Shown here: piece after piece, positions 8,162 to 31,789 of the stretch
Layout: each line of letters starts with the position of its first letter
Numbering within the stretch: the first letter of the stretch is position 1
DNA from: Patescibacteria group bacterium
GTDB taxonomy: Bacteria; Patescibacteriota; Patescibacteriia; UM-FILTER-42-10
NCBI GenBank assembly: GCA_041666485.1
Contig: JBAYGW010000003.1
Coordinates: forward strand, 16,415 to 80,414
Direction: 5' to 3'
Length of the DNA stretch: 64,000 nucleotides
Notes under the pieces: generated by a model
The model's database searches: none
What the model was told of the DNA's origin: nothing
What the model saw: only the letters and a program-made list of their open reading frames with translations
Made by a program: the position numbers and the translations under genes

Positions 8162-8167
8162 TAATTC

Positions 8168-10572: not shown

Positions 10573-10760
10573 CCACTTTCTTCTACAAATTGCTTTGTGC
10601 GGACGCTTAAGTCCGTTTGTGATAGTCACCCCACAACCCGATCCTACAGGGAGGTACGCCAAATGTACTCGTGGAGTTACGCACGCCACGGGTTCGGTTG
10701 ACCTGCGATCTTCTCCGTCTGAGTAGTCAATGCCCACGACTCAAAATGAGGAGATCTCGC

Positions 10761-11126
10761 ATGTGCGACAAGACCCAATGGAACGCGGGGCACGTCCTCG
10801 TCGTCCAGACCGTGTTCCCGACCGACAGCGAATCCCCCGGCGGTTTCTCGCGCAGCGTCATGTTGTGCACCTGTGGGAGCTGCCTGAGCTCCAACAACCC
10901 GATGACGCCCGCAGGGCCCCTGCACAGCTACCTGAAACGGTGCTTTGAGCAGGACGCTGCTGATGCGGTGGCGGGGGGCCTTGAGCCGCCCGTCAACCTC
11001 CTGAGCATGCCGAAGCTTGACCCGCGCACCGGCGCCGAGAAGCCGACCAAGAAGCAGGCAGCCATGCTGATCAAGCAGATCGGTCCGGACGCCTTCGCTT
11101 CCGACATCGTCGCGGCCTACGCCTAG
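10761..11126 (+). CDS. hypothetical protein (GC-rich island gene 1)
   Basis: ORF about 60%+ GC; GAGGAG SD 6 nt upstream of ATG 10761; followed by strong terminator; no known domain. Confidence 0.45.
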   Translation: MCDKTQWNAGHVLVVQTVFPTDSESPGGFSRSVMLCTCGSCLSSNNPMTPAGPLHSYLKRCFEQDAADAVAGGLEPPVNLLSMPKLDPRTGAEKPTKKQAAMLIKQIGPDAFASDIVAAYA

Positions 11127-11159
11127 CGTAGGAGAAGAAGTACATCGTTGAAGGACATC

Positions 11160-11192
11160 GGGCGAATCCACTGGATTCGCCCATTTTTTTAT
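11160..11192 (+). terminator. rho-independent terminator
   Basis: GGGCGAATCC-act-GGATTCGCCC 10-bp perfect stem followed by ATTTTTTTATT. Confidence 0.7.
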
Positions 11193-11200
11193 TATGAATA

Positions 11201-11229
11201 TTGACAGAAGAAGTGGAATACAATACCAT
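11201..11229 (+). promoter_or_regulatory. sigma70-like promoter (TTGACA-17-TACCAT)
   Basis: TTGACA at 11201, TACCAT at 11224 with 17-nt spacer, upstream of SD GGAGGAGG. Confidence 0.4.
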
Positions 11230-11276
11230 TGTTAACGCCCGCTGATTGTAAGACATCCTTCATGGAGGAGGTGGAC

Positions 11277-11573
11277 ATGTCCCAAAGTCGGCTGGTGATG
11301 TTCTTAATGCTCTTTCTCGGACTGACTCTCTCTCCCCTGTTTCTTGTCGTTGCGGCGGTTATGTTCCTTGCTCCCTCGGAGCCGAAGCTCATCCCCCGGG
11401 ATGATGAAGGGAGACGTTGCTGTCCCGTCTGCCACTCCAGACACTATCTCATCTTCCCGACTCGGCAGAAGAGCTACTTCGGCCATTCCTGGATTTCAGC
11501 ATTTTGCAGAAACCAAATGGAATACCGCTACCAGGACTGCACAATGAGCTGGAAAGAATCCGGGGACGGCTAA
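11277..11573 (+). CDS. hypothetical small membrane protein with CC..C.C..H cluster (GC-rich island gene 2)
   Basis: 99 aa from ATG after GGAGGAGG SD; N-terminal TM helix; CCPVCHSRH. Confidence 0.45.
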   Translation: MSQSRLVMFLMLFLGLTLSPLFLVVAAVMFLAPSEPKLIPRDDEGRRCCPVCHSRHYLIFPTRQKSYFGHSWISAFCRNQMEYRYQDCTMSWKESGDG

Positions 11574-11623
11574 ACCGCGTTGATGTTCTATCAGCGCTTT
11601 TTTTATATATTTATTTGACGTTA

Positions 11624-11959
11624 CTATCTGAAGATTTTAGACAGAAACCAGTTTACAATAGCCAGTACAATACCAAACAGCAATGCCCACCAAAAGCTTG
11701 CTATGGAAAATCCCGGAACAATTAACGCCATCAGCATAACCAATAATGCGTTAATCACCAGCGTAAACAAGCCAAGCGTCAGAATATTGATCGGCAGAGT
11801 AAAAATTACTAAAACAGGTTTGATAAATATATTAATCAGACCCAATACCAACGCCCCGACAAAAGCGACAAAAAAACCATCAACCGCTACGCCCGGTAGC
11901 AGATAGGCTGTGATCAGGATTGCGACCGTTGAAATTAGCCATTTAATAAGGATTTTCAT
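11624..11959 (-). CDS. DUF360 / phage-holin-4_2 family membrane protein
   Basis: 111 aa, 4 TM; YLLPGV motif; AT-rich native composition. Confidence 0.55.
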   Translation of the reverse strand: MKILIKWLISTVAILITAYLLPGVAVDGFFVAFVGALVLGLINIFIKPVLVIFTLPINILTLGLFTLVINALLVMLMALIVPGFSIASFWWALLFGIVLAIVNWFLSKIFR

Positions 11960-12156
11960 ATTGTTTTATTTAATGATTATGAAATCTTAGCTCTCTCTCC
12001 ATCAACCCAAAATAGTTGTTCATTATTAACAAAAGTAGGTATAATTAATGTACAAATATATTTTAGCACAATTCGCATAAAATACTCTATATTGCTGAAA
12101 TACGACATATATTCGTGTTGAAACGGGTTAAGTGAAATTCTAAATCTATTTTACAT

Positions 12157-13206
12157 ATGACAAACCATTACGAACAACAATTACAATTTGCTGCCCGTCG
12201 TGAGCAAGAGTCACTATTTACTGACGAGAATTGGATGGTACGCGTCAACAACGAGCTCCATAGTACGTACTTACCACTAGATAAGGATAAAGAAACACTA
12301 AGACCAGAATATCATGCTAAATTACTGGAAGATGCAGAGGCGTATTACCTGAACATTGGTGACGATTTCAATACATTTCGTCTACGATTGAAAAGAGGAA
12401 ATTTACGGGAAGCTGAACAACTAGCGCAAGTATTTTTATCTAAAACAGAAGAACCTAATTTTTTCGCCCATTACACTTCACACCCAGAGGCAATGGACGA
12501 TGCAAACATTCTTGAATTAAAAAAAACATACGTTTTGAGTGATTTAGCGAGATATAAGAAAGATGAAGAGTTACAAAAACAAGCTGCTGCAAGATTCATT
12601 ACTTACGCGGAAAATCAATCGCAACGTGATGAACTATCTGGCTACGAGGCATCAGCTCTCGGATTCTGGCAGGCACGAAGTCTTGTTACAGAAAACAAGC
12701 GAGCTGATATTTCAAATAATTGCATTGCCCAGTTTCGGAAAGCTGCTGAAGATAGAGCTAAAGTCGGGGATCGCTGGTGGGAAAGCATTGCACTGCGCCA
12801 AATAGGCAAAATCTCACCAGATCCAGCGGATAAGCAGGCAGCCTTACAAAGGTCAGAGGAACTGATTACGGAATATACGCAAATGGGCGATTACAAAAAA
12901 GCAGCCCTCTGGGCTCGCGATGTAAATGATCTCAATCCTTCAACAGAAAATGCTCAAAGAATGGAAGATTTGTGGAATGAAAACATAAGGAGAATGCAGG
13001 AAAGTGGTAATACGCGAGACATAGCTAAATCGCTCTGGTCTTTGTTCAAAAGGGTAAGAAAATACGATAGTGAAAAAGCTGAAGATTGCAGATTAAAGAC
13101 AATAGAGTGGTATGAGAAACTCTTATCCGAGGAAAAGGCTAAAAAGCAACCGAGAGAAGACAGAATACGCGAGTGCTATTGGGTATTCAGTGAGCTCATT
13201 CAATAA
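12157..13206 (+). CDS. hypothetical alpha-helical protein
   Basis: 349 aa, charged helical repeats, no recognised motif; slightly higher GC than neighbours. Confidence 0.5.
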   Translation: MTNHYEQQLQFAARREQESLFTDENWMVRVNNELHSTYLPLDKDKETLRPEYHAKLLEDAEAYYLNIGDDFNTFRLRLKRGNLREAEQLAQVFLSKTEEPNFFAHYTSHPEAMDDANILELKKTYVLSDLARYKKDEELQKQAAARFITYAENQSQRDELSGYEASALGFWQARSLVTENKRADISNNCIAQFRKAAEDRAKVGDRWWESIALRQIGKISPDPADKQAALQRSEELITEYTQMGDYKKAALWARDVNDLNPSTENAQRMEDLWNENIRRMQESGNTRDIAKSLWSLFKRVRKYDSEKAEDCRLKTIEWYEKLLSEEKAKKQPREDRIRECYWVFSELIQ

Positions 13207-13290
13207 ATTCAGAACTTCACACAACACCGCGTATGCGGAGAGTTTAAATCATATAGAAACAATCGGAAAATAATAAATATAGTATAATTT

Positions 13291-13779
13291 ATGACTAAAA
13301 AAATAGTTGGAATAATGGGTCCCGGTAGTAAAGCCACCATGAAGGACCTAAAAAACGCCTACAATATCGGAAAATTTTGTGCTGAAAATAACTGGGTTAC
13401 TTTAACAGGTGGCAGAAACAAAGGAGTAATGAATGAAGCATTAAAAGGCGCGAAAAAGGGTAACGGCTTAACTATCGGAATATTGCCAACTGATGAAAAA
13501 AATAAATTTTCTAAATTCCTAGATATTGCAATCTGCACAAATATGAGATCTGGAAGAAATTATATAAATGTTTTGTCTAGTGATATAGTAGTAGCCTGTG
13601 GTATAGACCCTGGCACATCTTCAGAGATCAGTTTGGCAATAAAACCAAAAAAGAATGTAATTTTAGTAGGACTTAATAAAGAGGCAAAAGACTTTTATAA
13701 AAAACTAGCCCCTAAACAAGTTTATTGTGTAAAAAATTATATAGAAGCAAATAAAATATTAGCTGAAAAACTTGGGTGA
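13291..13779 (+). CDS. TIGR00725-family LOG-like (SLOG superfamily) Rossmann protein
   Basis: 162 aa; GIMGPG, LTGG..GVMNEA, IGILP, RN.INVLSSD..VA.G..GT.SE pattern of LOG/TIGR00725 proteins; TATAAT just upstream. Confidence 0.6.
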   Translation: MTKKIVGIMGPGSKATMKDLKNAYNIGKFCAENNWVTLTGGRNKGVMNEALKGAKKGNGLTIGILPTDEKNKFSKFLDIAICTNMRSGRNYINVLSSDIVVACGIDPGTSSEISLAIKPKKNVILVGLNKEAKDFYKKLAPKQVYCVKNYIEANKILAEKLG

Positions 13780-13785
13780 TTTTTT

Positions 13786-13992
13786 GTGTCATACATCACC
13801 CCCGACCTTGACGAAGCTGGCAAAAAACAACTTGCGGATGTTGTATTAGCTATGAGAAAAGATTTGTTAGGCAGAAAAACTAAATTAAAACATGATGATA
13901 TAAAATATTTCATGTTACTTACGACAAATAGTAATATATTTTACTTCGTACAACACGCATTAGGAGAAATGCATAAACCAATTGAAAATTAA
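13786..13992 (+). CDS. hypothetical small protein
   Basis: 68-aa ORF between the two SLOG genes; start uncertain. Confidence 0.25.
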   Translation: MSYITPDLDEAGKKQLADVVLAMRKDLLGRKTKLKHDDIKYFMLLTTNSNIFYFVQHALGEMHKPIEN

Positions 13993-14001
13993 ATAAATAG
14001 A

Positions 14002-14418
14002 ATGAAAATTGTAATTTGCGGAAGTATGTCGTCAGCAGTTAAGATGTTAAACGCTGAGAAAGAATTACTTCAAAAAGGCCATAAAGTTGTATTACCAAAA
14101 CATACAAAAGAATATGCAGAAATAGAATCGGAGGCGGACACATCACATGAATCAATCAAGGACAAAATTGAACAAGATCTAATACGAGACTATTTTGAAG
14201 AGATAAAAAACGCTGATGCAGTTTTGATTATTAATGTTGATAAATACGGTATTCAAAATTATATCGGTGGAAATGCTTTTCTGGAAATGGGTTTTGCATA
14301 TGTTCTCAGTAAACCAATTTATATACTCAATCAAATTCCGGAAATATTTTATAAAGATGAGATTTTGGCAATGCAGCCGATTACACTTAACGGAAATTTA
14401 TCTAAAATACATTTATAG
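14002..14418 (+). CDS. nucleoside 2-deoxyribosyltransferase-like protein (SLOG superfamily)
   Basis: 138 aa; MKIVICGSMS...ADAVLIINVDKYG...GGNAFLEMGFAYVLSKPIYIL typical of Nuc_deoxyrib_tr-like proteins. Confidence 0.55.
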   Translation: MKIVICGSMSSAVKMLNAEKELLQKGHKVVLPKHTKEYAEIESEADTSHESIKDKIEQDLIRDYFEEIKNADAVLIINVDKYGIQNYIGGNAFLEMGFAYVLSKPIYILNQIPEIFYKDEILAMQPITLNGNLSKIHL

Positions 14419-16459: not shown

Positions 16460-17461
16460 TCAGGCTATCGGGTTATTCTCCATCTTTTCACTTTCATCTT
16501 CAATCTCCCCCACCAACTCTTCCAATAGATCTTCCAGCGTGGCAATACCGACGGCTTTTTGTTGCTTGTCCACAACTACTGCAATGTGAACATGAGTTTT
16601 CTGAAAAATTTTGAACAGGTAATTTATTTTAAAATCCTCATCTACAATAATCGGTTTTTTTGCAACCTGTTCAATACGAGCGTTGCCTTTATTTTTTACA
16701 AGTTCTCTAGCAATATCTTTCACTAGTGCAATCCCCACGATGTCATGCTTGTCAGATTTATATACCGGAACACGCGAATAGCCACTGGTAATAATTTCAC
16801 TCATCGCTTCTGAAATTGTTTTTTCACCTTGGAGCATAAAAACGTTTTTAAAAGGGACCATAATCTCTTTTGCTAAAGTATCGCTGAATATCAAAGCCTG
16901 GTTCATAATATATTGCTCGTGCGGTTGAATTACATTTCTTTCCACGCCAAACTGGATCATTTCCTTGATTTCTGTTTCCGTAATTAATTCTTGATCAGGG
17001 ATTTTTACAATTCTGTGCATTAAATTTGTAATCCATTCCAAAAACCAGACAAACGGATAAATAATTAAACCGAAATAGTAAACCGGCCTGGAAATAAATA
17101 AAGCTATGGCACCGGCATTACGGTTGGCAAATGTCTTTGGCATAATTTCACCAAAGATTAAGATCAACAAAGTCAGAATGCCCGTTGCTAATCCGATCAC
17201 ACCTGATCCAAAATGTTCTGAGACAATAATTGCCGTCATGGAGGCCGCGGAGATGTTTGCGATGTTATTGCCGATTAAAACTATAATAATCATCCGGCGA
17301 GGTCTTTCCTTTAGTTTGCGTAAAATACGCGAGCCGCGCTTATTTTCTTTAAGATACGTACGCACCTTTAAATCTGTTACCGAAAGCAAAGCAACCTCGG
17401 CAGCGGAAAAATATCCGGAGATCAGCAACAGAACAAATAAGATTAAAATGTTGGTCCACAT
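16460..17461 (-). CDS. CNNM/CorC-family protein (DUF21 transmembrane domain + CBS pair)
   Basis: 333 aa; N-terminal SGYFSAAEVALLSV DUF21, tandem CBS. Confidence 0.8.
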   Translation of the reverse strand: MWTNILILFVLLLISGYFSAAEVALLSVTDLKVRTYLKENKRGSRILRKLKERPRRMIIIVLIGNNIANISAASMTAIIVSEHFGSGVIGLATGILTLLILIFGEIMPKTFANRNAGAIALFISRPVYYFGLIIYPFVWFLEWITNLMHRIVKIPDQELITETEIKEMIQFGVERNVIQPHEQYIMNQALIFSDTLAKEIMVPFKNVFMLQGEKTISEAMSEIITSGYSRVPVYKSDKHDIVGIALVKDIARELVKNKGNARIEQVAKKPIIVDEDFKINYLFKIFQKTHVHIAVVVDKQQKAVGIATLEDLLEELVGEIEDESEKMENNPIA

Positions 17462-17462
17462 A

Positions 17463-18041
17463 CTACTTTACTATATTTATGTTGAATTTTTTTAGTGCCC
17501 TGACTAAAGCATAGATGGGCAAACCGACAATGCTAAAGAAATCACCTTCCAACTTGCGGATCAGCACTGCACCATACCCCTGAACGGCAAATGCTCCCGC
17601 TTTATCTAAAGGTTCACGTGTTCCAATATACCAGTTTATTTCCTCTGATGATAGCTTTTTGATGGAGACTTTTGCGGTGCTATAATCAGAATATTTCCTT
17701 TTTGTTCTTGCGTCAACTATAGCAAATCCGGTGATTACATTCACACTCTTCCCGCTGATCATTTTTAACATTCTTCGGGTATCTTCCTTGTCTTTCGGCT
17801 TGCCTAATAGCTTATTACCCAAAACAACAAAAGTATCAGCGCCAATTACTATCCCCTCTGCATGTTTCTTTGCCACAGACTGGGCTTTGTTAAGCGCCAA
17901 AAACTTCGCCAGCCTCACAGGCGACAGATTTATTTTCATATCCTCCGGATATTCGCTGGCTTCCACAGAAAATTTTACTTTCAACATTTTCAGCAATTCT
18001 ATTCTCCTGGGGGAGGTTGATGCCAAAATTATTTTTTGCAT
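17463..18041 (-). CDS. maf: Maf-like nucleoside triphosphate pyrophosphatase
   Basis: 192 aa; IILASTSPRRIELL, GADTVV-like core. Confidence 0.85.
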   Translation of the reverse strand: MQKIILASTSPRRIELLKMLKVKFSVEASEYPEDMKINLSPVRLAKFLALNKAQSVAKKHAEGIVIGADTFVVLGNKLLGKPKDKEDTRRMLKMISGKSVNVITGFAIVDARTKRKYSDYSTAKVSIKKLSSEEINWYIGTREPLDKAGAFAVQGYGAVLIRKLEGDFFSIVGLPIYALVRALKKFNINIVK

Positions 18042-18054
18042 TTCAGAATTATAA

Positions 18055-18753
18055 TCATCTTATCATCAATTTTTTTACTAAATATAACGGCAATGTCGCG
18101 ATCAGCGCAAGCATTTCCATTAATGCTCCCAGTGACACAACGGGCCCCATATATTTGTTCTGTAGCATATTCAGTGTATTTTTGCCTACATCATAGTATA
18201 TCATCAAACCACCTAAAATTATTAAAAACAAAATTCCCCAAATTGCATTTTTGATATCAACACTGCTCGGTGCAATAGAGGCGGAAATCCCCGTCGCAAG
18301 ATATAAAAACAGCCAGAACTTCCAGTCAGAAGCAAACTCGCGAAAAAAATCAAGAGCGCTTTGAAAAAGACCATTAATATTTTGTAGAAATGTGACGGAA
18401 AAATCAACACTCGGCAAAGTATTGTGATAACCGAAAAGCACAAAAAGTCCCCAGAGCGACAGTGAGCACCCGATGAGCGGAGCCAATCCGATCAGTGGTT
18501 TGCCGATTATCGGTATTCTTGGCTGACCGTGTTCCACCTCTCCCCCCTCCGGCGCAAAAAAACGGATCCTCATTATCTTTGCCCGCATCAGTACACACGC
18601 TATTGCGTGGCTAAGCTCATGGATAATGATTCCCGGCGTGATAAACCACCGATAACCATGGCGGGGGAAAATTCTGCTCCACAAAAAATCTAACAAAAAA
18701 CTGAAAATAATCAGCAGGACAAACCACGTCAGAAATGCCAGATAGTTTGCCAT
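18055..18753 (-). CDS. polytopic membrane protein with HExxH motif (putative M50B-like zinc metalloprotease)
   Basis: 232 aa; IIHELSHAIA; multiple TM helices. Confidence 0.4.
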   Translation of the reverse strand: MANYLAFLTWFVLLIIFSFLLDFLWSRIFPRHGYRWFITPGIIIHELSHAIACVLMRAKIMRIRFFAPEGGEVEHGQPRIPIIGKPLIGLAPLIGCSLSLWGLFVLFGYHNTLPSVDFSVTFLQNINGLFQSALDFFREFASDWKFWLFLYLATGISASIAPSSVDIKNAIWGILFLIILGGLMIYYDVGKNTLNMLQNKYMGPVVSLGALMEMLALIATLPLYLVKKLMIR

Positions 18754-18771
18754 ATGATATTCAGCTAATAA

Positions 18772-19236
18772 TTATTGTCCGATGTATGAACTTTGGACTC
18801 TAAAAGTGCTCGTGCTGGTTGCTCCGGCCGATTCAAAATATTCACCCGACTTATTCACAAGTTTAATTCTTAGAATATAGTTACCCTCATCAACAGTCCT
18901 GACCATCTGGCTGCCGCCTTTACTCAGAACGTTGTACGAACCGGGCACGATTATTATCGTTTCACCATTTTTTATCAATTCCAGGTCAATTCTCTGCACC
19001 GCCTGTGTTTCTCCGGACAGCACATATTGAGCAACCAACGGACCGGGATTCATTACGGCATTATTTGCCGGGGATAATATTTGTACTGATGGCTCCTCGT
19101 CAATTGTAATTTCTGCCTCAACATTTGAGTTACTATTATTTTCTTCCCTAAAATAATTATTTTGCGCAAGCCATGTCCAAATCAAAATTACTGCAGATAA
19201 TAAGGCAATTACAATTACTAATTTTTTGTTGTTCAT
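18772..19236 (-). CDS. hypothetical secreted/anchored protein
   Basis: 154 aa, N-terminal TM/signal. Confidence 0.4.
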   Translation of the reverse strand: MNNKKLVIVIALLSAVILIWTWLAQNNYFREENNSNSNVEAEITIDEEPSVQILSPANNAVMNPGPLVAQYVLSGETQAVQRIDLELIKNGETIIIVPGSYNVLSKGGSQMVRTVDEGNYILRIKLVNKSGEYFESAGATSTSTFRVQSSYIGQ

Positions 19237-19586
19237 TATGACAGTCCTAATTCATCTTTAGCACTTTCCTTTACCATATCCGGTGTCCAGGGCGGATCCC
19301 AGACTAGGTACACCTTTGCACTTTTTATGCCCGGGAGCTTTTCTAGAACTTCCTGCGCCTGTCTGGTAATCGGACCTGCAAGCGGGCACCCCGGGAAAGT
19401 CAGTGTCATTTTTAGGGTCACAGCATTATTGCGTACCGATAAGCTATATATCAGACCGAGATCAACAATATTGATTCCTAATTCCGGATCCATTACTTCC
19501 CTTAATGCATTCTCAGCTGATTTCTTTGTAATTTTGTCCTGAAGCTTTATTTGTGGCTTTTTTTTATTCATAACGCAGAGCGTCAA
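19236..19586 (-). CDS. DUF59 (MIP18/SufT-like) Fe-S cluster assembly protein
   Basis: 116 aa; VMDPELGINIVDLGLIY motif. Confidence 0.7.
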   Translation of the reverse strand: MTLCVMNKKKPQIKLQDKITKKSAENALREVMDPELGINIVDLGLIYSLSVRNNAVTLKMTLTFPGCPLAGPITRQAQEVLEKLPGIKSAKVYLVWDPPWTPDMVKESAKDELGLS

Positions 19587-20802
19587 TCGGATTTTTTCTT
19601 GCGGCTTTTGATGCCGGCATTATTCCAAATACTATTCCAACAATGACAGATACGCCAAATGCTAATGCTAGTGAAAAAACAGTTATTAGCGCCGGAATGC
19701 CGTAGTATTTGGTAATCAATTGAGTCACTACGTACGCCAGACCAACTCCTATGAATCCGCCCAGTAAACTCAAGACGCTTGATTCAATTAAGAATTGGAA
19801 TAAAATATTTGAGCCGGACGCTCCCAACGCTTTTCTGATTCCAATTTCTCTTGTTCTCTCTGTTACAGACACCAGCATGATGTTCATAATTCCAATTCCA
19901 CCAACAATTAATGATATTGCGGCTATTCCGACGATTGCATTTGTTAATATTCCAAAAAAATCATCAAAGAGATCCAGCATATCGTCAGTTGTTAATACAG
20001 AAAAATCTTTAATTCCCTTATGCCGCTCCAACATTAAACTGTTGACTGTTTCAACACCAGGAGCGACCGCTTCGGTTGAATTGAAATTAATCATTATTCT
20101 AAAAATATTCAGTGCCTCAAGGGTGTCCTCAGCTGTACTGATTGGAATTGTGTATGCTTCATGCAGGTTCGGCATTTGACTCGTCATCATGTTACTATCG
20201 TCACCTCCGCCGCTTAGGAATCCTACATCAGTTTCCACAACTCCGATTACCTCAAATTCCTCTTCTAACACTTTTACTTTCTGCCCGACTGCTGAACCTT
20301 CAAAGTCACGTTTCGCAGCATCACGGCCAACCAGAATTACTTTCGCCTTGTTTTCAATATCTTCGGCAGAAATATACCTTCCTTCAATGGCTTTGATATC
20401 TACTATTTTGTTCATCTGATCATTTGTTGCTAAAACCATCGGAAGATACGGATTGCCTACTGGAGGGGTCACAGCACTTGGCACAATCATGAGCGGCGCA
20501 ACTGCTTTCACATTTTCCACCTCGCTGATTGCATCCACATCCCCCATTGTTAATGCCGACATACTCATAAATGAAGCTGGATTCATTTCGCCATTAGTGA
20601 TATCTCCCGCAATCACAGCCGCTAAATTTCCGCCTAACGAATCAACTGCACCGGTAAATTCTTGTTTTACCCCGTCTCCAATACTGACTAATGTTATTAC
20701 GGAAAACACTCCAATAATTATGCCAAGCATAGTCAATACGGACCGCATACGATTTGCCCAGATTGCCGATAATGCAAAGCGGATACTTTCTAAAATGTTC
20801 AT
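19564..20802 (-). CDS. ABC transporter permease (FtsX/MacB-like)
   Basis: 412 aa; N-terminal TM, large periplasmic domain, C-terminal FtsX 3-TM bundle. Confidence 0.8.
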   Translation of the reverse strand: MNILESIRFALSAIWANRMRSVLTMLGIIIGVFSVITLVSIGDGVKQEFTGAVDSLGGNLAAVIAGDITNGEMNPASFMSMSALTMGDVDAISEVENVKAVAPLMIVPSAVTPPVGNPYLPMVLATNDQMNKIVDIKAIEGRYISAEDIENKAKVILVGRDAAKRDFEGSAVGQKVKVLEEEFEVIGVVETDVGFLSGGGDDSNMMTSQMPNLHEAYTIPISTAEDTLEALNIFRIMINFNSTEAVAPGVETVNSLMLERHKGIKDFSVLTTDDMLDLFDDFFGILTNAIVGIAAISLIVGGIGIMNIMLVSVTERTREIGIRKALGASGSNILFQFLIESSVLSLLGGFIGVGLAYVVTQLITKYYGIPALITVFSLALAFGVSVIVGIVFGIMPASKAARKNPIDALRYE

Positions 20803-21485
20803 ACATTTGCTCCTTCCAATTCGCCGTCCACGATTCTTATTGTTTTATTCGCCCACTTCGCTATCTCAGGATCGTGAGTCACTATTAATAATGTCGTCCC
20901 CCTCTGATTGGCCGCTTTCAGCAGTTCCATAATTTCCCTTCCTGTTTTAGTGTCTAAATTACCAGTCGGCTCGTCTGCTAAAATTATTTCCGGTTGATTG
21001 ACTAATGCTCTGGCAATTGCCGCCCTTTGCGCTTCTCCGCCGGAAAGCTCATTCGGTTTATGGTGCATCCGCTCGGTAATTCCAACTGATTTTATGGCAT
21101 CCAATACTTTTTGCTTCCTTTCGGCTCTTGGCTCCTTAGCATAAATCAGTGGAAGCTCAACATTCTTATAAACGGAATACCTCGGCAATAGGTTATAGCT
21201 CTGGAAAATGAATCCGATTTTTTTGCCGCGCATTTTTGGAAATTCTCGTTTGGCAATTTCTAAAATATTTTGTCCGTCCAGTTCATACAAACCGTCCGTC
21301 GGCCAGTCCAACAGGCCGATAATGTTCATCAGAGACGATTTACCAGATCCCGATGGACCCATAAATGCAACAAAATCCCCCTTTTCTATTTCAAGGGAAA
21401 CATGTTTAATTACCGGAAGAAGCCTCTTTTTGCCTATCTGATACGACTTGTCAATTTTATCTAATTTAATTACTGATTTTGGCAT
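20799..21485 (-). CDS. ABC transporter ATP-binding protein (MacB/LolD-like)
   Basis: GPSGSGKSS Walker A, LSGGEAQRAAIARAL signature, ILADEPTGNLD Walker B. Confidence 0.85.
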   Translation of the reverse strand: MPKSVIKLDKIDKSYQIGKKRLLPVIKHVSLEIEKGDFVAFMGPSGSGKSSLMNIIGLLDWPTDGLYELDGQNILEIAKREFPKMRGKKIGFIFQSYNLLPRYSVYKNVELPLIYAKEPRAERKQKVLDAIKSVGITERMHHKPNELSGGEAQRAAIARALVNQPEIILADEPTGNLDTKTGREIMELLKAANQRGTTLLIVTHDPEIAKWANKTIRIVDGELEGANV

Positions 21486-21761
21486 TTATTTATTTCTTTT
21501 AGCTATCAAAAAAATAAAACTAATAAACAAAGTTACGAGTGTAATCAATTCGGCGAACATTATTGACACAGAACTGGTCTGCACAAAGAATATTCTTGAA
21601 ATGTAGTATATTGCGCCAAAAACAATCAGATTCAGAATAACCAAAAATGCAAACTTCATAACTAGTGACATATGCCCTGCCGGAAGCATTCTTTCCGGAT
21701 TACTCTCCTGTTTGTTCAATAACGGGGTTGGCTTATTTTTTTCGTTATTTTTTTCAGCCAT
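21486..21761 (-). CDS. hypothetical small membrane protein
   Basis: 91 aa, two TM helices. Confidence 0.35.
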   Translation of the reverse strand: MAEKNNEKNKPTPLLNKQESNPERMLPAGHMSLVMKFAFLVILNLIVFGAIYYISRIFFVQTSSVSIMFAELITLVTLFISFIFLIAKRNK

Positions 21762-21797
21762 TGAATTATTATTAATGTTTAGCCTTAATATTATAGC

Positions 21798-22718
21798 CTA
21801 TTTGTTCAGCAATTTCAATAATCTCTCACCCACGGAATATGGAACAGTTCTATTTTTTGAAATATACCCCAGAGGCAGTCCCGGTATGCTCTTATTATGG
21901 AAATCGCTGCCGCCTGTAATCTGCAGATTATTGCGTTCCGCAAATTTCAGCAGATTTTTAATATCTTTTACATAATGATCGGAAGCATATGCTTCTATAC
22001 CGTCTAATCCCATTTTTTTTAATGCTAGAAGATTTTTTGACCAAGTTCCTTTTACCGGCCACAGAGATAAATCCGGGGAATATCTTCTGCCTAACGGATG
22101 GGAAATAAACGCATATCCTCCCGCGTCATGAATAAGTTTGATCGCCTGTCCGGCGGAGAGATTCTTTTTTTCCGCATACGCGGCCGCGCTTTTAACCAAA
22201 TATTTTGCAATAAATTGTGAACGGTCAGGTATAAATCCGAAATTTTTGATTAATATTTTATTATTCCTTTTATCAAATATTACTTGATCGGCAAGATGCG
22301 GACGACCGATAATTTTTTCCGCTCTGTTTCTCACTCCGATGTAGCTGACCGCGTAGCCCAGACGGTTCAGGTTTATAATCATCTTTTTAATGCGGGTCAC
22401 TCGGCTATTAATATAAAACTGGCTTGCTCTCTTCATTGCGATGTGGTGATAATCAAATCCGTATCCCAACAAATGTAATTCTTCCCCTTTGAATGTGACT
22501 GTTATTTCAATTCCGGAAATAAATGGAAATCCGTATTGCTTAGCCTTTTTTTCAACATCATGCATGCCGATTGCAGAATCATGATCACAGACCACTAAAA
22601 TTTTTACTCCAGATTTTTTTGCCATACGGAAAAGCTCTGATGGCGTCAATGATCCGTCAGAGTGGATAGAATGCACCTGTAGATCCACTAGTTTCTGTTT
22701 CCTTTTCATTATAATCAT
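21798..22718 (-). CDS. PHP-domain phosphoesterase
   Basis: 306 aa; DLQVHSIHSDGS...VVCDHDS PHP metal-binding motifs. Confidence 0.7.
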   Translation of the reverse strand: MIIMKRKQKLVDLQVHSIHSDGSLTPSELFRMAKKSGVKILVVCDHDSAIGMHDVEKKAKQYGFPFISGIEITVTFKGEELHLLGYGFDYHHIAMKRASQFYINSRVTRIKKMIINLNRLGYAVSYIGVRNRAEKIIGRPHLADQVIFDKRNNKILIKNFGFIPDRSQFIAKYLVKSAAAYAEKKNLSAGQAIKLIHDAGGYAFISHPLGRRYSPDLSLWPVKGTWSKNLLALKKMGLDGIEAYASDHYVKDIKNLLKFAERNNLQITGGSDFHNKSIPGLPLGYISKNRTVPYSVGERLLKLLNK

Positions 22719-22837
22719 TATATCCCATTTTACAGAATAAATCCCGTTAAAAGCTTATGTGTGGTATTAAACTCCGCGTTCTCTATACCTTTGTGTATTC
22801 AGCCCGCAGCGAGATGCGAAGTATCCTGCTTCTAATG

Positions 22838-22875
22838 GAATAAAAAACCTGCCCAACACGTGAGTTGTGTTTAGA
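22838..22875 (-). terminator. intrinsic terminator downstream of purH
   Basis: imperfect GC hairpin followed on minus strand by TTTTTTATT. Confidence 0.45.
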
Positions 22876-22907
22876 CAGGGTCCTTTTGAAAAATGTGCAA
22901 ACGCCCT

Positions 22908-24497
22908 CTAGTGCCAGAACATCCGGCGATCGGTAAAGAGCATCGCGATGCCCAGTTTGTCCGCGGACCTGATTGAATCCTGGTCGCGAATTGAACCGCC
23001 CTGCTGGACGATCGTCTTGACGCCGAACGTGTCCGCCAGGCGCACGCAGTCGTCAAACGGGAAGAAGCTGTCGGACACCAGCACAGCATGGTGCAGATCC
23101 ATATTCTGCGCCTCCATGTTGTTCATGGCCTGCTCCAGAGCAAGCCGTGCCGACTTGATCCGGCTGGTCTGGCCGTTGCCGATGCCGATCGTCTGCCCGT
23201 TCCAGACCACGATGACCGAGTTGGACTTGACGTGCTTTGACACATTGCAGCCGAAACTGATATCCGACCAGTAGCGGTCCTTGACACCGAGCTTGGTGAC
23301 GCACCGGAACGACCTGCAGTCAAACAGCTCGGTGTCCATCAGCTGGACCACCATGCCGCCGGTCACCGGCTTGAAGTTCAGCGTGCCGAACGGCATGCTG
23401 CAGGAAAGCTCCCCACCCAGTTTGAACAGCGGGGTCTCTGCCCTGGCGCGCTTCTTGGTGATGTGTTCCATCGCCTCCGGCGAAAAATCCAGCGCGACGA
23501 TCGCGTCCACCTTCTGCACGCAGATGGTTTCAGCGACTTCCTCCGTCACCTGGAAGTTGAGTACCACCACCCCGCCGAAAGCCGATTCCGGATCGCACGC
23601 CAGTGCGTTCTGGAAAGCCTTCAGCGGACTGAAGCTGTCCATCGCCACTCCGCACGGCGTACCATGCTTGATGATCGCGACTGCGAATTCCGGGGACAGG
23701 TCGCGGACCGTCTCAATGCCGGCATTGATATCCAGCACAGTGGTGGCCGAGAGCGGCTTGCCCCAGATCTGCTTGGCGTTTGCCGCGGTGTAGCAGTTCA
23801 GACCCGGCAGTTCGTAGAACGCACCCGGCTGATGCGGATTCTCACCGTAGCGCAGATCACACTTCTTCTGCAGACGCTGAACCATCCGATCCGGGAAGCT
23901 GGGGAACTCAAGGCGTTCAGCCAGCCAGTCGGAGATCGTGGCGTCATACCACGCAGTGTGAAGAAACGCCTTGTAAGCCAGTTGCAGACGTTCCAGCGCG
24001 TTGAACCCGACATCTTCCGAAAGACACCGAATCACAAAGCCGTACTGCTCTGGTGAAGTGACCACCAGCACATGGCTGTGATTCTTCGCGGCCGCGCGGA
24101 TCAGTGCCACGCCGCCGATATCAATCTGCTCAATCGCGTCCCGAAATGCCACGGTCCGATCAGCCACCGTCTCTTCAAACGGATACAGGTTGACCACGAC
24201 CATGTCAAACGGGTAGATGCTGTGATCAAACAGCTCCTGCATGTGCGCGTCGCTGTCCTGATCCGCCAGGATCCCGCCGTGGATCTTCGGATGCAGAGTC
24301 TTCACCCTGCCACCCAGAATTTCCGGGAAACCGGTCACCTCCTCTACCGTTCGCACGGGAATTCCGGCTTCCACCAGGTGTCTGGACGTTCCGCCGGAAG
24401 ATACAATCTCCCAGCCATGTTCAAACAGCACGGTGGCAAGCTCAACAATGCCGCGCTTGTCGGACACGCTGATCAGAGCGCGCTGATTTGCTCGCAT
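22908..24497 (-). CDS. purH: bifunctional AICAR transformylase / IMP cyclohydrolase (high-GC gene)
   Basis: ALISVSDKRGIVELA MGS-like domain, GGRVKTLHPKIHGGILA, AICARFT domain; about 60% GC; AAAGGAG SD 7 nt before ATG at 24497. Confidence 0.85.
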   Translation of the reverse strand: MRANQRALISVSDKRGIVELATVLFEHGWEIVSSGGTSRHLVEAGIPVRTVEEVTGFPEILGGRVKTLHPKIHGGILADQDSDAHMQELFDHSIYPFDMVVVNLYPFEETVADRTVAFRDAIEQIDIGGVALIRAAAKNHSHVLVVTSPEQYGFVIRCLSEDVGFNALERLQLAYKAFLHTAWYDATISDWLAERLEFPSFPDRMVQRLQKKCDLRYGENPHQPGAFYELPGLNCYTAANAKQIWGKPLSATTVLDINAGIETVRDLSPEFAVAIIKHGTPCGVAMDSFSPLKAFQNALACDPESAFGGVVVLNFQVTEEVAETICVQKVDAIVALDFSPEAMEHITKKRARAETPLFKLGGELSCSMPFGTLNFKPVTGGMVVQLMDTELFDCRSFRCVTKLGVKDRYWSDISFGCNVSKHVKSNSVIVVWNGQTIGIGNGQTSRIKSARLALEQAMNNMEAQNMDLHHAVLVSDSFFPFDDCVRLADTFGVKTIVQQGGSIRDQDSIRSADKLGIAMLFTDRRMFWH

Positions 24498-24641
24498 TTC
24501 TGCTCCTTTCGTGGCAAACCGTGAAGCTTTCACCGCAAACAACCGTTTGGGAAACGGTTTTTTAACTTATCACTCCGACTGACGCAAGTCAAATCAAAAA
24601 CGGGTGACTTTCACCCGCATTTAATTATGAATGAATATGTC

Positions 24642-25145
24642 CTATTTTGACCGAATCCATTTATCTAGACTGAACCGATTTTTATGGCTTAAAGTGACCA
24701 GGCCAGCCATAACCATAAACAGCAAATCTCTGACATATGTGCTCCAATCCAGAGCGCTTTCGGAATTGAAACACCCGCAGGCAATCAATCCGCCACGGTA
24801 CAGGGTAATTAGGATGGCGATCATAAAACTAAAAAGCATCAGATTAATAATCGTCACGCTGAATCTCGTAAACAATCCTATAACAACCGCAAACCCGAAT
24901 ATCAGTTCAACCCAGGGCAACGCGTAGCCATACCATGTTTCCAGCGGATCGGGCAGAACATTATACTGCCGGACGGTTGCCATGAATTCATCCGGCGCCG
25001 GAATTTTTGACATAGCCGCCATTATAAATACCACGCCCAGTAATATCCGTAGGATCATAGTTGCATAATCATTCACAAATATTTTATTCATTCCAGCTAC
25101 CACTTTTTGATACATTGACTTTTTTTGTAAGTTTGTTTCTTCCAT
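24642..25145 (-). CDS. MauE/DoxX-family membrane protein
   Basis: 167 aa, 4 TM, CGCFN motif. Confidence 0.6.
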   Translation of the reverse strand: MEETNLQKKSMYQKVVAGMNKIFVNDYATMILRILLGVVFIMAAMSKIPAPDEFMATVRQYNVLPDPLETWYGYALPWVELIFGFAVVIGLFTRFSVTIINLMLFSFMIAILITLYRGGLIACGCFNSESALDWSTYVRDLLFMVMAGLVTLSHKNRFSLDKWIRSK

Positions 25146-25171
25146 TAATCCTGCTTTCTAGTGATGAATAC

Positions 25172-25936
25172 TTAATTAATTTTATTGAGCCATTTGATTA
25201 TGCCATTCGCCATTTGTTTTGAATCTCTATCCTGATGAAGCGTGTGCCCGGCATTTTTAATCACTATCCTATTCTTTATTTTAGTATTTAAATCATAATA
25301 AAATTTTCTATTCAATTTCAAAATCCGCGGATCCTCAGCTGAACCGTATATTTGTAATACTGGGCAGTTTATTTTCCTAACATGCATTGGCATATTATAT
25401 TTTTTTGATTCATTATAAACTGCAACCCCTATTTTAACCTGCTTTTTTTGAATTCTGGAGTATTCAAAAGCCCAACCTTGTTTTAATAGCAAAGCAAAAT
25501 TATCTCTCATTTCAAAAACAGCCAGCAAATCGTATGTTGGACTTTGCAGGATCAACCTACTAATGCGCCGATCACGACTTGCAATAATTACTGCGGCTGT
25601 ACCGCCGATTGAATAACCGATAAGAATATATTGCTTTCTTTTTAAATGCTTTAAAACATATGAAACTACCAGCTTAATATCCTGAACGTATCCTCCAACA
25701 GTAAAATCAACCAGCTTTCCTTCGCTTTTTCCTGTACTGTTCGTCGCATCCAAACGAACTGTAGAATACCCTTCTTCTCTTAACTTGCGCGCTACTTTAA
25801 CAACCTGCGGAGTTCCGCCGAATGACCGAAAACCGTGGCAAAGGATTACTAATGGTCCGGGAGACTTACCTCTCCATTCCAAAACGGCATAAATTGTTTT
25901 GCCTTTTTCATTCTTAATTCTGATTTCTTCTTTCAC
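25172..25936 (-). CDS. alpha/beta hydrolase
   Basis: 254 aa; GYSIGG nucleophile elbow, HG oxyanion region. Confidence 0.7.
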   Translation of the reverse strand: MKEEIRIKNEKGKTIYAVLEWRGKSPGPLVILCHGFRSFGGTPQVVKVARKLREEGYSTVRLDATNSTGKSEGKLVDFTVGGYVQDIKLVVSYVLKHLKRKQYILIGYSIGGTAAVIIASRDRRISRLILQSPTYDLLAVFEMRDNFALLLKQGWAFEYSRIQKKQVKIGVAVYNESKKYNMPMHVRKINCPVLQIYGSAEDPRILKLNRKFYYDLNTKIKNRIVIKNAGHTLHQDRDSKQMANGIIKWLNKIN

Positions 25937-25937
25937 A

Positions 25938-26408
25938 CTATGTCCTGTCCAAAATAATTTTTATATCCTCTGATGCCTTCGGTAAAAAACGCGATTGGAG
26001 ATAATGGCAAGTGATTTCCTCATCCAGATCCTGGTTGATGGCACGATTACCCAGACGATGTACGCCGTCCACCACCAAATATATTTCTTTCTCCGGATAA
26101 TATAGAACCAATATATCCCCCGCCGGCACGTCATCGTAATCATAAAAACTTTTGAAGTGGTCTTCATTAACCTTGGTCTGTGCCAGTGCATAAACATCCT
26201 TCAGCCTGACCGGTAAGTACTCATCATCTTTGCCCGCCTCTTCAAAAGCGTTAGTAATAATTCCGCACTTCTGGTATCGTGGCAAATAGTACTCCATAAT
26301 GTCGGATACTTTCTTTTTTTCTGAAAATTCCCGCTTGCCGAAAAACAACCAGGTCTTTTTTATCCGTACACGGATGTCTTTGCTGTATTTTTCCAGAAAG
26401 TCTGACAT
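25938..26408 (-). CDS. hypothetical protein with ParB/Srx-like DGxHR motif
   Basis: 156 aa; LVVDGVHRLGN. Confidence 0.3.
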   Translation of the reverse strand: MSDFLEKYSKDIRVRIKKTWLFFGKREFSEKKKVSDIMEYYLPRYQKCGIITNAFEEAGKDDEYLPVRLKDVYALAQTKVNEDHFKSFYDYDDVPAGDILVLYYPEKEIYLVVDGVHRLGNRAINQDLDEEITCHYLQSRFLPKASEDIKIILDRT

Positions 26409-26537
26409 GCAATAAGTATAGCAATTCCCCGGGTAAAAACAATTCTGGCTTAGATTTTAAAGACCATCTTTGTGTGTTATGCTAGAGGGGTGTAAGGGTG
26501 TAATAGCATTAATTTAAGTAAATCAGAGCAAAAAACC

Positions 26538-27527
26538 ATGAATCTGGATAAGATCTATACAATACTGGCAGACCAGCCGAAATACCGGATAGAACAGGCT
26601 AACGAAGCCATTTTTAAACTACTCATAAACAATTGGGATGGGGCGACAAACTTCCCGAAGGAAATCAGAGAAAAACTGAACCGAGAGTGCCCGCTGGAAA
26701 TAAAAGGTGAACTTTTTGCCTCCAAAGACAATAAAACCAGCAAAGCGCTGATTACACTGGAAGACGGCCAGCAGATTGAAACTGTTCTACTGATTCACAA
26801 AGACGGTCGGCATACAGTATGTGTTTCCACTCAAGCCGGTTGTCCGATGGGGTGCACTTTCTGTGCCACCGGAAAGCTAGGACTCAAAAGAAATCTGAAG
26901 GCGGAAGAAATATTGGCACAGGTACTTTTTTTCTCCAGGATTTTGAAACCGAAGAATGAACGCGTGTCCAACGTAGTTTTCATGGGTATGGGCGAACCGT
27001 TCCTGAATTATGACAATACACTTTCGGCAATCAACTATTTGAATAAAGACTTAGGTATCGGTGCCCGCCGTATCTCCATATCCACCTGCGGAGTAATCCC
27101 GGGGATAGAAAAATTAGCAAAAGAAAAATTACAGCTAAACCTTGCCGTATCGTTGCACGCGCCCAATCAGGAACTGCGTAATAAACTGATGCCGGTCAGC
27201 AAGCATGTTGCTTTAGAAAAACTGCTTTCAGCCGTGGACGACTATATTGCCAAAACCGGCAGACGGGTTATGTTTGAATATTTGATGATCAAGGGTGTAA
27301 ATGATAAAATTGAGTACGCAAAGCAACTGGCCGTGCTGATGGATAAACCTCTTCACATGGTAAACCTGATCGCCTACAACCCTACGGACGTTTTCAAACC
27401 TTCGGACCGGAAAACAATAGAAGCATTCAAAGAAGTTTTGGAAAAAGCGGGTGTTACCGTTACCCAGCGCTACAGTTTCGGTCAGGATATCAACGCTGCC
27501 TGTGGACAGTTGGCTAATAAAAAGTAA
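26538..27527 (+). CDS. rlmN: 23S rRNA (adenine2503-C2)-methyltransferase, radical SAM
   Basis: 329 aa; GCPMGCTFCATG radical-SAM cluster, MGMGEP, RlmN/Cfr C-terminal Cys. Confidence 0.85.
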   Translation: MNLDKIYTILADQPKYRIEQANEAIFKLLINNWDGATNFPKEIREKLNRECPLEIKGELFASKDNKTSKALITLEDGQQIETVLLIHKDGRHTVCVSTQAGCPMGCTFCATGKLGLKRNLKAEEILAQVLFFSRILKPKNERVSNVVFMGMGEPFLNYDNTLSAINYLNKDLGIGARRISISTCGVIPGIEKLAKEKLQLNLAVSLHAPNQELRNKLMPVSKHVALEKLLSAVDDYIAKTGRRVMFEYLMIKGVNDKIEYAKQLAVLMDKPLHMVNLIAYNPTDVFKPSDRKTIEAFKEVLEKAGVTVTQRYSFGQDINAACGQLANKK

Positions 27528-30001: not shown

Positions 30002-30427
30002 ATGACCAAAGCACAAATCAAGGGACATCAAGTTGTTTGTTCCGCGTTTATAGAAAGAAATAAAAGGTTTTTGATTGTCATGGATCCCAAATTCAAAGTT
30101 TGGCGGGTTCCCGGAGGCAGACCGGAGCACGGTGAAAAGCTTGAAGATACTTTGATACGAGAAATGCAGGAAGAAACAGGTATAACATTTTCCGACCCCA
30201 AATTCATCGGCTTTGGCCAGGATCAGCAGTTTAAAGTGGATGATAAACTGGAAACATCGCGTTTGATTATGTATTTTCATGTGCATACCGACCAGGAACC
30301 GGTGCTTGACCCGAACGAAGCAGAACAGCACAAATGGGTTACGCTTGACGAACTCAAGGAAATAGATTTAGATAACAAGGAAGGGGCGCTTACCGATTTT
30401 TTTAATCGTAATCCGAATTTTAAATAA
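30002..30427 (+). CDS. NUDIX hydrolase
   Basis: GGRPEHGEKLEDTLIREMQEETGI Nudix box. Confidence 0.8.
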   Translation: MTKAQIKGHQVVCSAFIERNKRFLIVMDPKFKVWRVPGGRPEHGEKLEDTLIREMQEETGITFSDPKFIGFGQDQQFKVDDKLETSRLIMYFHVHTDQEPVLDPNEAEQHKWVTLDELKEIDLDNKEGALTDFFNRNPNFK

Positions 30428-30434
30428 AACATTT

Positions 30435-30812
30435 ATGAATGAAAATGTCATAGTCAAAGAGTCAAGTATCAATAATAAAGGCGTTTTTGCCACACGCGAT
30501 TTTAAAAAGGGTGAAGTAGTGCTCCCCTGGCAGACAAATACTATCCTAACCATGGAAGAAGTTAAAAAATTGCCGGCATCAGAAAGAAACTATATCGCCA
30601 ACTATGCGGGGGGTAAATATCTGCATCAACAAGAGCCGGAAAGATATGTTAACCACTCCTGCGATCCGAATACAGAAACTGGTGATGATTGTGACGTAGC
30701 GATCAGAGATATTAAATCTGGTGAAGAAATTACTTCCGATTATTCCAAGGCAAAGTTTAATATGCACTTTGTATGCAACTGCGGGAGTAAAAATTGCCGC
30801 AAGTATATTTAA
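30435..30812 (+). CDS. SET-domain protein (putative lysine methyltransferase) with post-SET Cys cluster
   Basis: 125 aa; NHSCDPN, GEEITSDY, C-terminal CNCGSKNC. Confidence 0.7.
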   Translation: MNENVIVKESSINNKGVFATRDFKKGEVVLPWQTNTILTMEEVKKLPASERNYIANYAGGKYLHQQEPERYVNHSCDPNTETGDDCDVAIRDIKSGEEITSDYSKAKFNMHFVCNCGSKNCRKYI

Positions 30813-30838
30813 GTATATATACTTTAAATGATTGAATC

Positions 30839-31297
30839 ATGTCGGATCAACGAAAAGTAATCCCGGGAGTACATCTCATTTTCCAAAAATATAATAATGA
30901 CATCGGCGAGAACGAGTATCTGCTCCACAAGCGCATGAATACCAACTTTTTTGACAAACACTTTTCCGTTCCCGGCGGGCATATTGATGATTATGAAACC
31001 CCTACCGACTGCGTGGTACGCGAAGGAAAAGAAGAACTTGGTGTGGATATTGATCCAAAATACATAAAATTTGCTAATGTACTTTACAGGATTAAAAAAT
31101 CCGATCATGAAGTGCGCATTGACTTTTGCTACATCATTACCAAATGGAAAGGCATATTGAAGGCCAATGAACAGCATAAACACTCTGAGCCGGCCTGGTA
31201 TCCACTCAGCAAATTCCCTACACCCGTAGTTCCTTATGTATTGCAGGCAATACAAGATATTGAAAGTGGAATTGCATACACAAAGACAGATATTTAG
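30839..31297 (+). CDS. NUDIX hydrolase
   Basis: GGHIDDYETPTDCVVREGKEELGV Nudix box. Confidence 0.75.
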   Translation: MSDQRKVIPGVHLIFQKYNNDIGENEYLLHKRMNTNFFDKHFSVPGGHIDDYETPTDCVVREGKEELGVDIDPKYIKFANVLYRIKKSDHEVRIDFCYIITKWKGILKANEQHKHSEPAWYPLSKFPTPVVPYVLQAIQDIESGIAYTKTDI

Positions 31298-31351
31298 TGG
31301 GGAATAAGAATCATAATAATAACCTGGGTGCAAGAATTTAATTCAATATAA

Positions 31352-31789
31352 ATGTTTACAATCGGAACATTCGGCATAATCAAAGATGAAAATGAACGGG
31401 TATTACTCTGTCACCGCCGGGATTATGATTTTTGGAATCTGCCTGGAGGCGGAGTAAAAGAAAATGAAACTCCCTGGGACGCTGTAATTCGGGAAATAAG
31501 GGAAGAAACGGGACTGGAAGCTCGGATCACTCACCTCTCGGGCGTGTACAGCAAGCCGGATAAAAATGAAATTGTGTTTTCTTTTGTTTGCGAAATAGCG
31601 GGCGGGGAAACTACTTTAACTGACGAGGCGGACAAAATAGCATATTTTGAAGTTGACCAGATTCCTAAAAATACTTCCCCGAAACAAGTGGAACGGATCA
31701 AAGATTATTTTGCTGATCCATCCAAAACCCACTACAAGGCGCAAACCGGCGCGTCATCAATTGATCTGATCAAAGCGGGAAGACTTTAA
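31352..31789 (+). CDS. NUDIX hydrolase
   Basis: GGGVKENETPWDAVIREIREETGL Nudix box. Confidence 0.8.
   Translation: MFTIGTFGIIKDENERVLLCHRRDYDFWNLPGGGVKENETPWDAVIREIREETGLEARITHLSGVYSKPDKNEIVFSFVCEIAGGETTLTDEADKIAYFEVDQIPKNTSPKQVERIKDYFADPSKTHYKAQTGASSIDLIKAGRL

Follow-up and report, generated by a model that had tools for sequence, protein, structure and literature searches.

The purH gene and its locus

We analyzed a 64,000-nucleotide stretch of a Patescibacteria group bacterium (assembly GCA_041666485.1, contig JBAYGW010000003.1, positions 16,415 to 80,414 of the forward strand), referred to here as the window, and focused on a GC-rich purH gene on its minus strand. This gene encodes a predicted bifunctional 5-aminoimidazole-4-carboxamide ribonucleotide (AICAR) transformylase and inosine monophosphate (IMP) cyclohydrolase. 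The features at its locus, in window coordinates, are as follows.

22908–24497, minus strand: purH coding sequence, 529 amino acids (aa), with ATG at 24497 and TAG at 22908–22910; IMP cyclohydrolase (MGS-like) and AICAR transformylase domains
24503–24508, minus strand: Shine-Dalgarno motif AAGGAG, 5 nt ahead of the purH ATG, as read from the sequence
22842–22886, minus strand: hairpin with U-run 3' of the stop codon, probable intrinsic terminator of purH, from folding and conservation
24600–24618, minus strand: terminator of the upstream MauE/DoxX gene (8 pairs, 5 of them G-C, T-run)
24541–24559, strand not assigned: another short hairpin, located in the 5' leader of purH, AACCGTTTGGGAAACGGTT, matching no Rfam family
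21798–22718, minus strand: PHP-family phosphoesterase, the conserved neighbor downstream of purH

The open reading frame (ORF) is listed as 22908–24542 (minus strand) with a TTG start, and we place the start at the ATG at 24497 because the orthologues have 529–530 aa and the AAGGAG motif lies at 24503–24508. Both domains are full length by Pfam, with PF02142 (MGS) matching residues 31–145 in the N-terminal domain and PF01808 (AICARFT_IMPCHas) matching residues 151–471 in the C-terminal domain over profile positions 1–311 of 311 (E 1e-85). The protein scores 592 bits against NCBIfam NF002049, above the curated equivalog threshold of 402, which upholds the identity given to the gene in a preliminary description made from the sequence alone. 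It can be aligned over its full length with Mycobacterium tuberculosis PurH (3ZZM), and the motifs GRVKTLHP, NLYPF, IDIGG, AAAKN, RYGENPHQ, KH, SAFGG, GQTSR, and GGSxRD are unchanged in 9/9 orthologues and align to that structure, with the Lys-His dyad at K277-H278. The roles of these residues and motifs are presumably those known from ATIC/PurH structures. After the dyad, TPCG replaces NPCG throughout the clade of PurH sequences from the Candidate Phyla Radiation (CPR).

With a ratio of nonsynonymous to synonymous divergence (dN/dS) of ∼0.17–0.21, purH reads as intact and under purifying selection. Given this selection (dN/dS ∼0.2) and the retention of the gene in all nine genomes in which we located it, purH is evidently useful to its hosts. 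As an enzyme, this PurH is a typical representative of a known family; what is unusual is its setting.

The Shine-Dalgarno motif and terminator that the preliminary description had assigned to purH are both present at the positions given above, and the terminator hairpin with its U-run is kept in seven related loci with compensating changes in the stem. Its folding energy is by itself unremarkable (z −1.13), and a simple terminator scan did not catch it because the stem is interrupted. Given that the upstream MauE/DoxX gene has its own terminator at 24600–24618, purH appears to form a separate transcription unit; a sigma-70 scan found no promoter near it. A known RNA or riboswitch was also considered for the purH leader and for a GC-rich patch at 10.2–11.8 kb, and Rfam returned none; the only Rfam hit in the window was a tRNA-Gln, with no riboswitch.

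Conservation of purH in related genomes

A search of 5.8 billion proteins returned PurH of the window itself, then eight close matches at 82, 81, 79, 65, 51, 51, 51, and 49% identity, and beyond these a plateau at 44–48% in Bacillota and many other phyla. In the alignment of orthologues, identities to the window protein were 82, 82, 79, 65, 52, 52, 52, and 51%. We fetched the contigs for all eight close matches, and all are AT-rich contigs of related CPR organisms, one of them Candidatus Kerfeldbacteria (GCA_002784945.1) within the Patescibacteria/Parcubacteria group. They come from JGI, ENA, NCBI, and Logan assemblies of differing samples.

In seven relatives (L001, L003, L130, L131, L008, L129, and L006), the gene directly downstream of purH encodes the same PHP phosphoesterase, while the contig of the eighth, L128, stops at purH and has an upstream DUF2703 gene as in L006. 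On the longer contigs, the PHP gene is followed by an ORF of ∼91 aa, an ABC ATPase, and an FtsX permease, which together define the syntenic slot, and the AMP phosphorylase and RuBisCO genes are often near. The purH stop codon, the spacer, the terminator hairpin, and the next promoter-like sequence on the PHP side (TGnGATATAAT) are conserved across both deep branches of the group, and this 3' junction is therefore old. In the gap that separates the purH terminator from the promoter of the PHP gene, at ∼22740–22840, we also observed a conserved element of ∼100 nt that occurs in the window, L001, and L130 and is absent from L003, L008, and L129.

In a neighbor-joining tree of 83 PurH sequences, the CPR proteins form one clade with two subclades that are ∼50% identical to each other, with 100/100 bootstrap support for each split. 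The clade is distant from outsiders, at a median distance of 0.95 vs. 0.70 among the outsiders themselves, and searching GTDB genomes with the aligned CPR PurH proteins gave, among the matches listed, only distant PurH proteins of many phyla (best 46%). Together, synteny and phylogeny suggest that purH would have been fixed and vertically inherited in a single chromosomal slot, just upstream of the PHP phosphoesterase/small ORF/ABC/FtsX block and transcribed alone, since before this Kerfeldbacteria-related group of Patescibacteria diversified.

As a separate observation, the closest relative varies gene by gene when window positions 16460–27527 are compared with L001, L003, and L130. The radical SAM gene of the window is 94% identical to that of L003 and 79% to that of L001, and for CNNM, the L001 and L003 genes share 87% identity, with both 70% identical to that of the window. 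This pattern indicates what is probably frequent recombination among the window species, L001, L003, and L130.

GC excess of purH and its persistence

The GC content of purH is 59.1% (0.60, 0.40, and 0.77 at first, second, and third codon positions; GC1, GC2, and GC3) vs. 40.1% in the remaining window, close to the ∼60% of the preliminary description for purH, and its rise and fall match the ends of the ORF. For comparison, GC3 ranged from 0.27 to 0.49 in the 36 other window genes measured. Codon use departs from the background (AAG 0.91 vs. 0.24, CAG 0.95 vs. 0.50, CTG 0.77 vs. 0.26), ATA, TTA, and CTA are unused, and the protein is depleted in Lys, Ile, and Asn and enriched in Ala and Val.

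This excess is common to all nine loci, where purH has a GC content of 0.52–0.61 (GC3 0.55–0.81) vs. 0.36–0.43 in the flanks (up to 10 kb per side). Flanking genes within the subclade of the window are near synonymous saturation, with synonymous divergence (dS) from 1 to >3. At conserved residues, the synonymous codon choice of purH is 86–95% randomized among the window, L008, and L006, similar to 83–99% in the flanks. We then classified sites by rate in one subclade and read composition in the other: sites with three or four bases in the second subclade (B) had a GC3 of 0.80–1.0 in the window subclade, and invariant sites 0.82. Fast sites are as GC-rich as invariant ones, which contradicts the idea that the excess survives at slowly changing sites, given that such a relic predicts the opposite. 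A two-state likelihood analysis of three taxa placed the stationary GC3 of purH at ∼0.75 and rejected 0.40 (p 0.003), while the pooled flanks were stationary at 0.39.

We conclude that the GC excess of purH is long-lived and not the mark of recent import. The evidence leans toward active maintenance of this composition, through either selection at synonymous sites or some GC-biased process, over a fading relic.

Proposed function and purine context

About 57 ORFs of the window could be annotated by Pfam or NCBIfam. Among them, as previously claimed, there was no other de novo purine gene, and we likewise found no histidine genes and no folate-interconversion genes. The following window genes bear on the substrates and product of PurH.

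40712–42187, plus strand: guaB, IMP dehydrogenase, which uses IMP
38735–40558, minus strand: guaA, guanosine monophosphate (GMP) synthase
2198–3163, plus strand: fmt, methionyl-tRNA formyltransferase (TIGR00460, 288 bits, cut-off 201.5)

The presence of fmt shows that the cell handles 10-formyltetrahydrofolate (10-formyl-THF), the co-substrate of PurH. The window also holds an adenosine monophosphate (AMP) phosphorylase, a type III RuBisCO, a ribose-1,5-bisphosphate (R15P) isomerase homologue, and a TRZ/ATZ-type amidohydrolase, so that the salvage setting of the preliminary description (guaA, guaB, the amidohydrolase, and the AMP phosphorylase/RuBisCO pathway) is indeed there. The AMP phosphorylase, RuBisCO, and R15P isomerase genes are located 10–15 kb away from purH, with synteny kept in relatives.

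In the predicted reaction, PurH would convert AICAR and 10-formyl-THF to formyl-AICAR (FAICAR) and then to IMP, and GuaB and GuaA would turn this IMP into GMP. Conversion of AICAR to IMP feeding GuaB/GuaA is the most likely function, with the direction of the reaction and its role deduced from gene content. Since an intact and apparently selected purH stands by itself amid nucleotide salvage genes and guaA/guaB, this remains the natural reading, as it was in the preliminary description. The claim that purH is a lone gene fared less evenly. It stands for the window and for the flanks of seven relatives, and L006 alone has a pur neighbor: in this distant Kerfeldbacteria relative, a purM equivalog of 476 aa (11901–13331, GC 54–56%) directly follows purH. 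The L006 PurM has an N-terminal part extending >100 residues beyond ordinary purM proteins (∼345 aa) and a single close relative (54%) in the protein collection.

Interpretation and alternatives

Taken as a whole, we consider it rather probable that purH encodes a functional bifunctional AICAR transformylase/IMP cyclohydrolase, that the gene is long-resident in this lineage, and that its GC excess is long-lived. Several points weigh against this interpretation. The window PurH scores 508 bits against the older TIGR00355 model, slightly below the cut-off of 528. No AICAR source (hisF/hisH, other pur genes, or a transporter) was identified in the window and the ∼20 kb stretches of the relatives that we read, and Rfam detected neither a ZTP riboswitch nor another known regulator upstream of purH, at the gathering threshold across the window or at E ≤ 1 over 24400–24700. 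The PurH trees are neighbor-joining only. Between subclades, PurH is 52% identical while flanking genes are 69–88% identical, and this greater divergence could reflect faster evolution or an old replacement. The other subclade has a lower GC3 (0.55–0.65), as slow amelioration would also yield. Finally, in a four-taxon analysis with gamma-distributed rates, a relic composition falling from a root GC3 of ∼0.94 toward 0.40 had a negative log-likelihood of 686.9 vs. 689.3 for stationarity, at the cost of one extra parameter. The three-taxon result is model dependent, given that the relic fits slightly better once rate variation is added, and the case for persistence leans on the site-class test and the randomization between deep pairs instead.

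The alternative that survives best is one ancient transfer event, in which the ancestor of the clade would have received purH from a donor very rich in GC; the GC excess would then be a relic that decays unusually slowly. We regard this as rather unlikely. With gamma rates, decay accounts for the four-taxon data no worse than stationarity does, purH GC3 is graded between lineages from 0.81 to 0.55, and the purM gene adjoining purH in L006 is also GC-rich, with Acidobacteria-like best matches. Parsimony counts 89 GC-to-AT vs. 36 AT-to-GC changes in purH, but this ratio is near the parsimony expectation under stationarity at a GC3 of 0.77 (∼81:44 by hand calculation). Moreover, slow decay works only if purH branches are about one-third as long as flank branches and if the root of the window subclade, taken by itself, already had a GC3 of ∼0.94; extrapolated further back, to the common ancestor with the 50%-identical subclade, the required GC3 is >1. 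It also conflicts with the near-complete randomization of codon choice between subclades and with fast sites that are no less GC-rich than slow ones. We therefore favor a GC excess that is probably maintained over one in very slow decay. A foreign origin of purH in the ancestor of the whole clade is, from these comparisons, neither shown nor excluded.

A second alternative, which we consider improbable, is that purH is not alone and that a fuller de novo purine pathway is scattered elsewhere in the genome, with purH merely outside its operon. The purM equivalog directly after purH in the Kerfeldbacteria relative speaks for this, as does the fact that only 64 kb of the genome were seen. However, neither the 64-kb window nor the ∼20 kb surrounding purH at seven further loci contained a pur gene, and among the best 120 matches to the L006 PurM there was no large contig of the window clade, which is a weak argument. 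CPR bacteria are also generally without nucleotide synthesis (PMC5113843, PMC7304191); in the literature, we found no paper treating purH in CPR, Patescibacteria, or Kerfeldbacteria. Judging from the L006 purM, the ancestor may have possessed a larger portion of the pathway, of which purH would be a still-useful remainder.

It is also conceivable, with a low probability, that PurH is kept for something besides net IMP synthesis, such as removal of AICAR (ZMP) as a toxic or signaling compound or the reverse reaction from IMP to 10-formyl-THF. No AICAR source was identified in the stretches read, keeping purH alone calls for a reason, and the transformylase step alone is reversible. Nevertheless, both PurH domains are fully conserved, cyclization strongly favors IMP, guaB and guaA offer an evident use for it, and a ZTP riboswitch is absent by Rfam.

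The preliminary description had read the high GC content of purH as a sign of likely horizontal acquisition. In the recent form of this scenario, the gene would come from a GC-rich donor (∼60% GC), with a composition that had not yet ameliorated. The composition and codon usage do look foreign across the whole gene and the GC island is bounded by the ORF, but we now find this scenario very improbable. The same slot is occupied by purH in the eight other related contigs, down to ∼50% protein identity, so that the patchy presence expected among relatives is replaced by presence in 9/9 related loci found, and the flanking genes are at synonymous saturation. PurH phylogeny had been proposed as the check, with a placement among related Patescibacteria named beforehand as the outcome contradicting acquisition; the protein falls with related Patescibacteria at 82–49% identity, in a monophyletic, CPR-only clade with 100/100 support, and recent horizontal gene transfer (HGT) is rejected on this basis. 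No donor was seen in the 5.8 billion proteins, the GTDB matches listed, or viral contigs. A viral origin of the gene, as a phage auxiliary purH/purM, was discarded, with IMG/VR and GenBank phages giving at most ∼43% overall identity. Repeats bordering purH were limited to short chance matches, no integrase or transposase was present among the annotated window ORFs, and no tRNA lies near purH.

An assembly chimera or bin contamination, in which a GC-rich fragment was joined into a CPR contig, could explain the abrupt GC change but has a negligible chance of being correct, because independent assemblies (JGI, ENA, NCBI, and Logan) of separate samples share the arrangement, and the junctions fall exactly at gene ends within conserved, native-type intergenic sequence.

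Other GC-rich genes in the lineage

The purH gene is not the only GC-rich island delimited by an ORF in the window.

55796–56923, plus strand: M29 aminopeptidase gene, 63% GC, GC3 0.84

In the relative L089 (6001–7128), the M29 gene has the same synteny, 88% identity, and 63% GC, with flanks at 40% GC. In L182 (8001–9161), a distant Patescibacteria contig of 34% GC, the M29 gene has 52% GC and quite different neighbors. These comparisons indicate that the GC excess of the M29 gene, like that of purH, is persistent. A protein of 405–443 aa without a Pfam family, encoded at 55–60% GC, follows the CNNM gene in L001 (18709–19926), L003 (17654–18871), and L008 (17995–19326) and is missing from the window and L130.

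A further GC patch, at about 10380–11700 of the window and reaching 66% GC, is 77% identical to L130 positions 19642–21005, an equivalent in which no gene is called. Ribosomal RNA was dismissed as the cause of the GC rise at 10–12 kb because Rfam shows none there, and Rfam, Pfam, and NCBIfam gave no match for the patch. Within it, an apparent ORF at 10671–11126 (plus strand) has third-position-biased differences and its own terminator, and an apparent small Cys-rich membrane ORF lies at ∼11277–11573 (plus strand). Ahead of these, what looks like a conserved leader of ∼270 nt (10400–10660) has a long-range helix formed by GGTGGGAGGAC/GTCCTCCCACC and a variable inserted hairpin, and may be an undescribed cis-regulatory RNA.

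Given the M29 gene, the 405-aa protein, the L006 purM, and the GC patch, the lineage carries several persistent GC-rich single-gene islands. We tentatively propose, without holding it to be the likelier case, that a gene-specific force holds purH, the M29 gene, the gene of the 405-aa protein in relatives, and the 10.4–11.6 kb patch 15–25 GC points above the ∼40% of the genome, over evolutionary times in which synonymous codon choice can become randomized. Selection acting on mRNA or at synonymous sites, or localized GC-biased conversion, would be examples of such a force.

Comparison with known systems and remaining gene content

The window PurH has the same two-domain architecture and all catalytic and substrate motifs of canonical PurH (M. 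tuberculosis 3ZZM; NF002049/TIGR00355). Unlike canonical PurH, its gene lies outside a pur operon in a genome that otherwise looks salvage-only, and the protein belongs to a long-branch, CPR-only clade with at most 44–48% identity to non-CPR proteins. On the Kerfeldbacteria contig L181 (7226–7828), we observed a protein of 200 aa with the IMP cyclohydrolase only, 45% identical to residues 1–193 of the window PurH; its gene lies directly upstream of an M29 peptidase gene (8001–9140), with no transformylase half nearby. Stand-alone IMP cyclohydrolase proteins such as ForH (PDB 6NKO) have a single domain like this L181 protein, whereas the window PurH has both.

Compositionally atypical transferred genes are said to ameliorate in the model of Lawrence and Ochman. 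Like a transferred island, purH differs from its host in GC, GC3, and codon and amino-acid usage, with boundaries at gene ends. Unlike such an island, it is not patchy among relatives, has no detected mobility genes, tRNA, repeats, or donor, and has an atypical composition that outlasted near-complete synonymous turnover.

In CPR bacteria, the route of AMP phosphorylase, R15P isomerase, and form II/III or III RuBisCO degrades nucleotides for carbon (Wrighton et al., 2016, PMC5113843). The window contains the genes for all three, and purH, which has no described part in this route, would provide the IMP/GMP pool with an additional input.

The window also encodes def, many NUDIX hydrolases, a LOG/SLOG-type protein, and a phosphoribosyltransferase without clear specificity. 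Nucleotide-handling genes are unusually dense (30002–31789, 45365–46486, 50659–51093, and 13291–14418), including five NUDIX-domain proteins, one of them fused to a HAD phosphatase, the LOG/SLOG-type protein, and a weak nucleoside deoxyribosyltransferase-like ORF. A GIY-YIG domain protein of 155 aa (60139–60689) adjoins tRNA-Gln(CTG), the sole tRNA of the window.

Implications

The usual portrayal of CPR bacteria is that they are incapable of purine synthesis. A conserved, selected, stand-alone PurH in one lineage suggests that AICAR (ZMP) or a related compound is steadily supplied by a host or the environment, a dependency that can be tested. The part most worth following is the heritable GC excess common to purH and a few other genes. 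A GC anomaly may be old and heritable, so that calls of recent HGT or contamination based on GC content, and the resulting removals during curation of metagenome-assembled genomes, can err. If the GC excess is maintained, these loci would offer a natural system for gene-by-gene control of GC content, with orthologous loci and their flanks as internal controls. In that case, calling HGT from composition would give systematically misleading results in CPR genomes, and bacteria would have gene-specific compositional equilibria.

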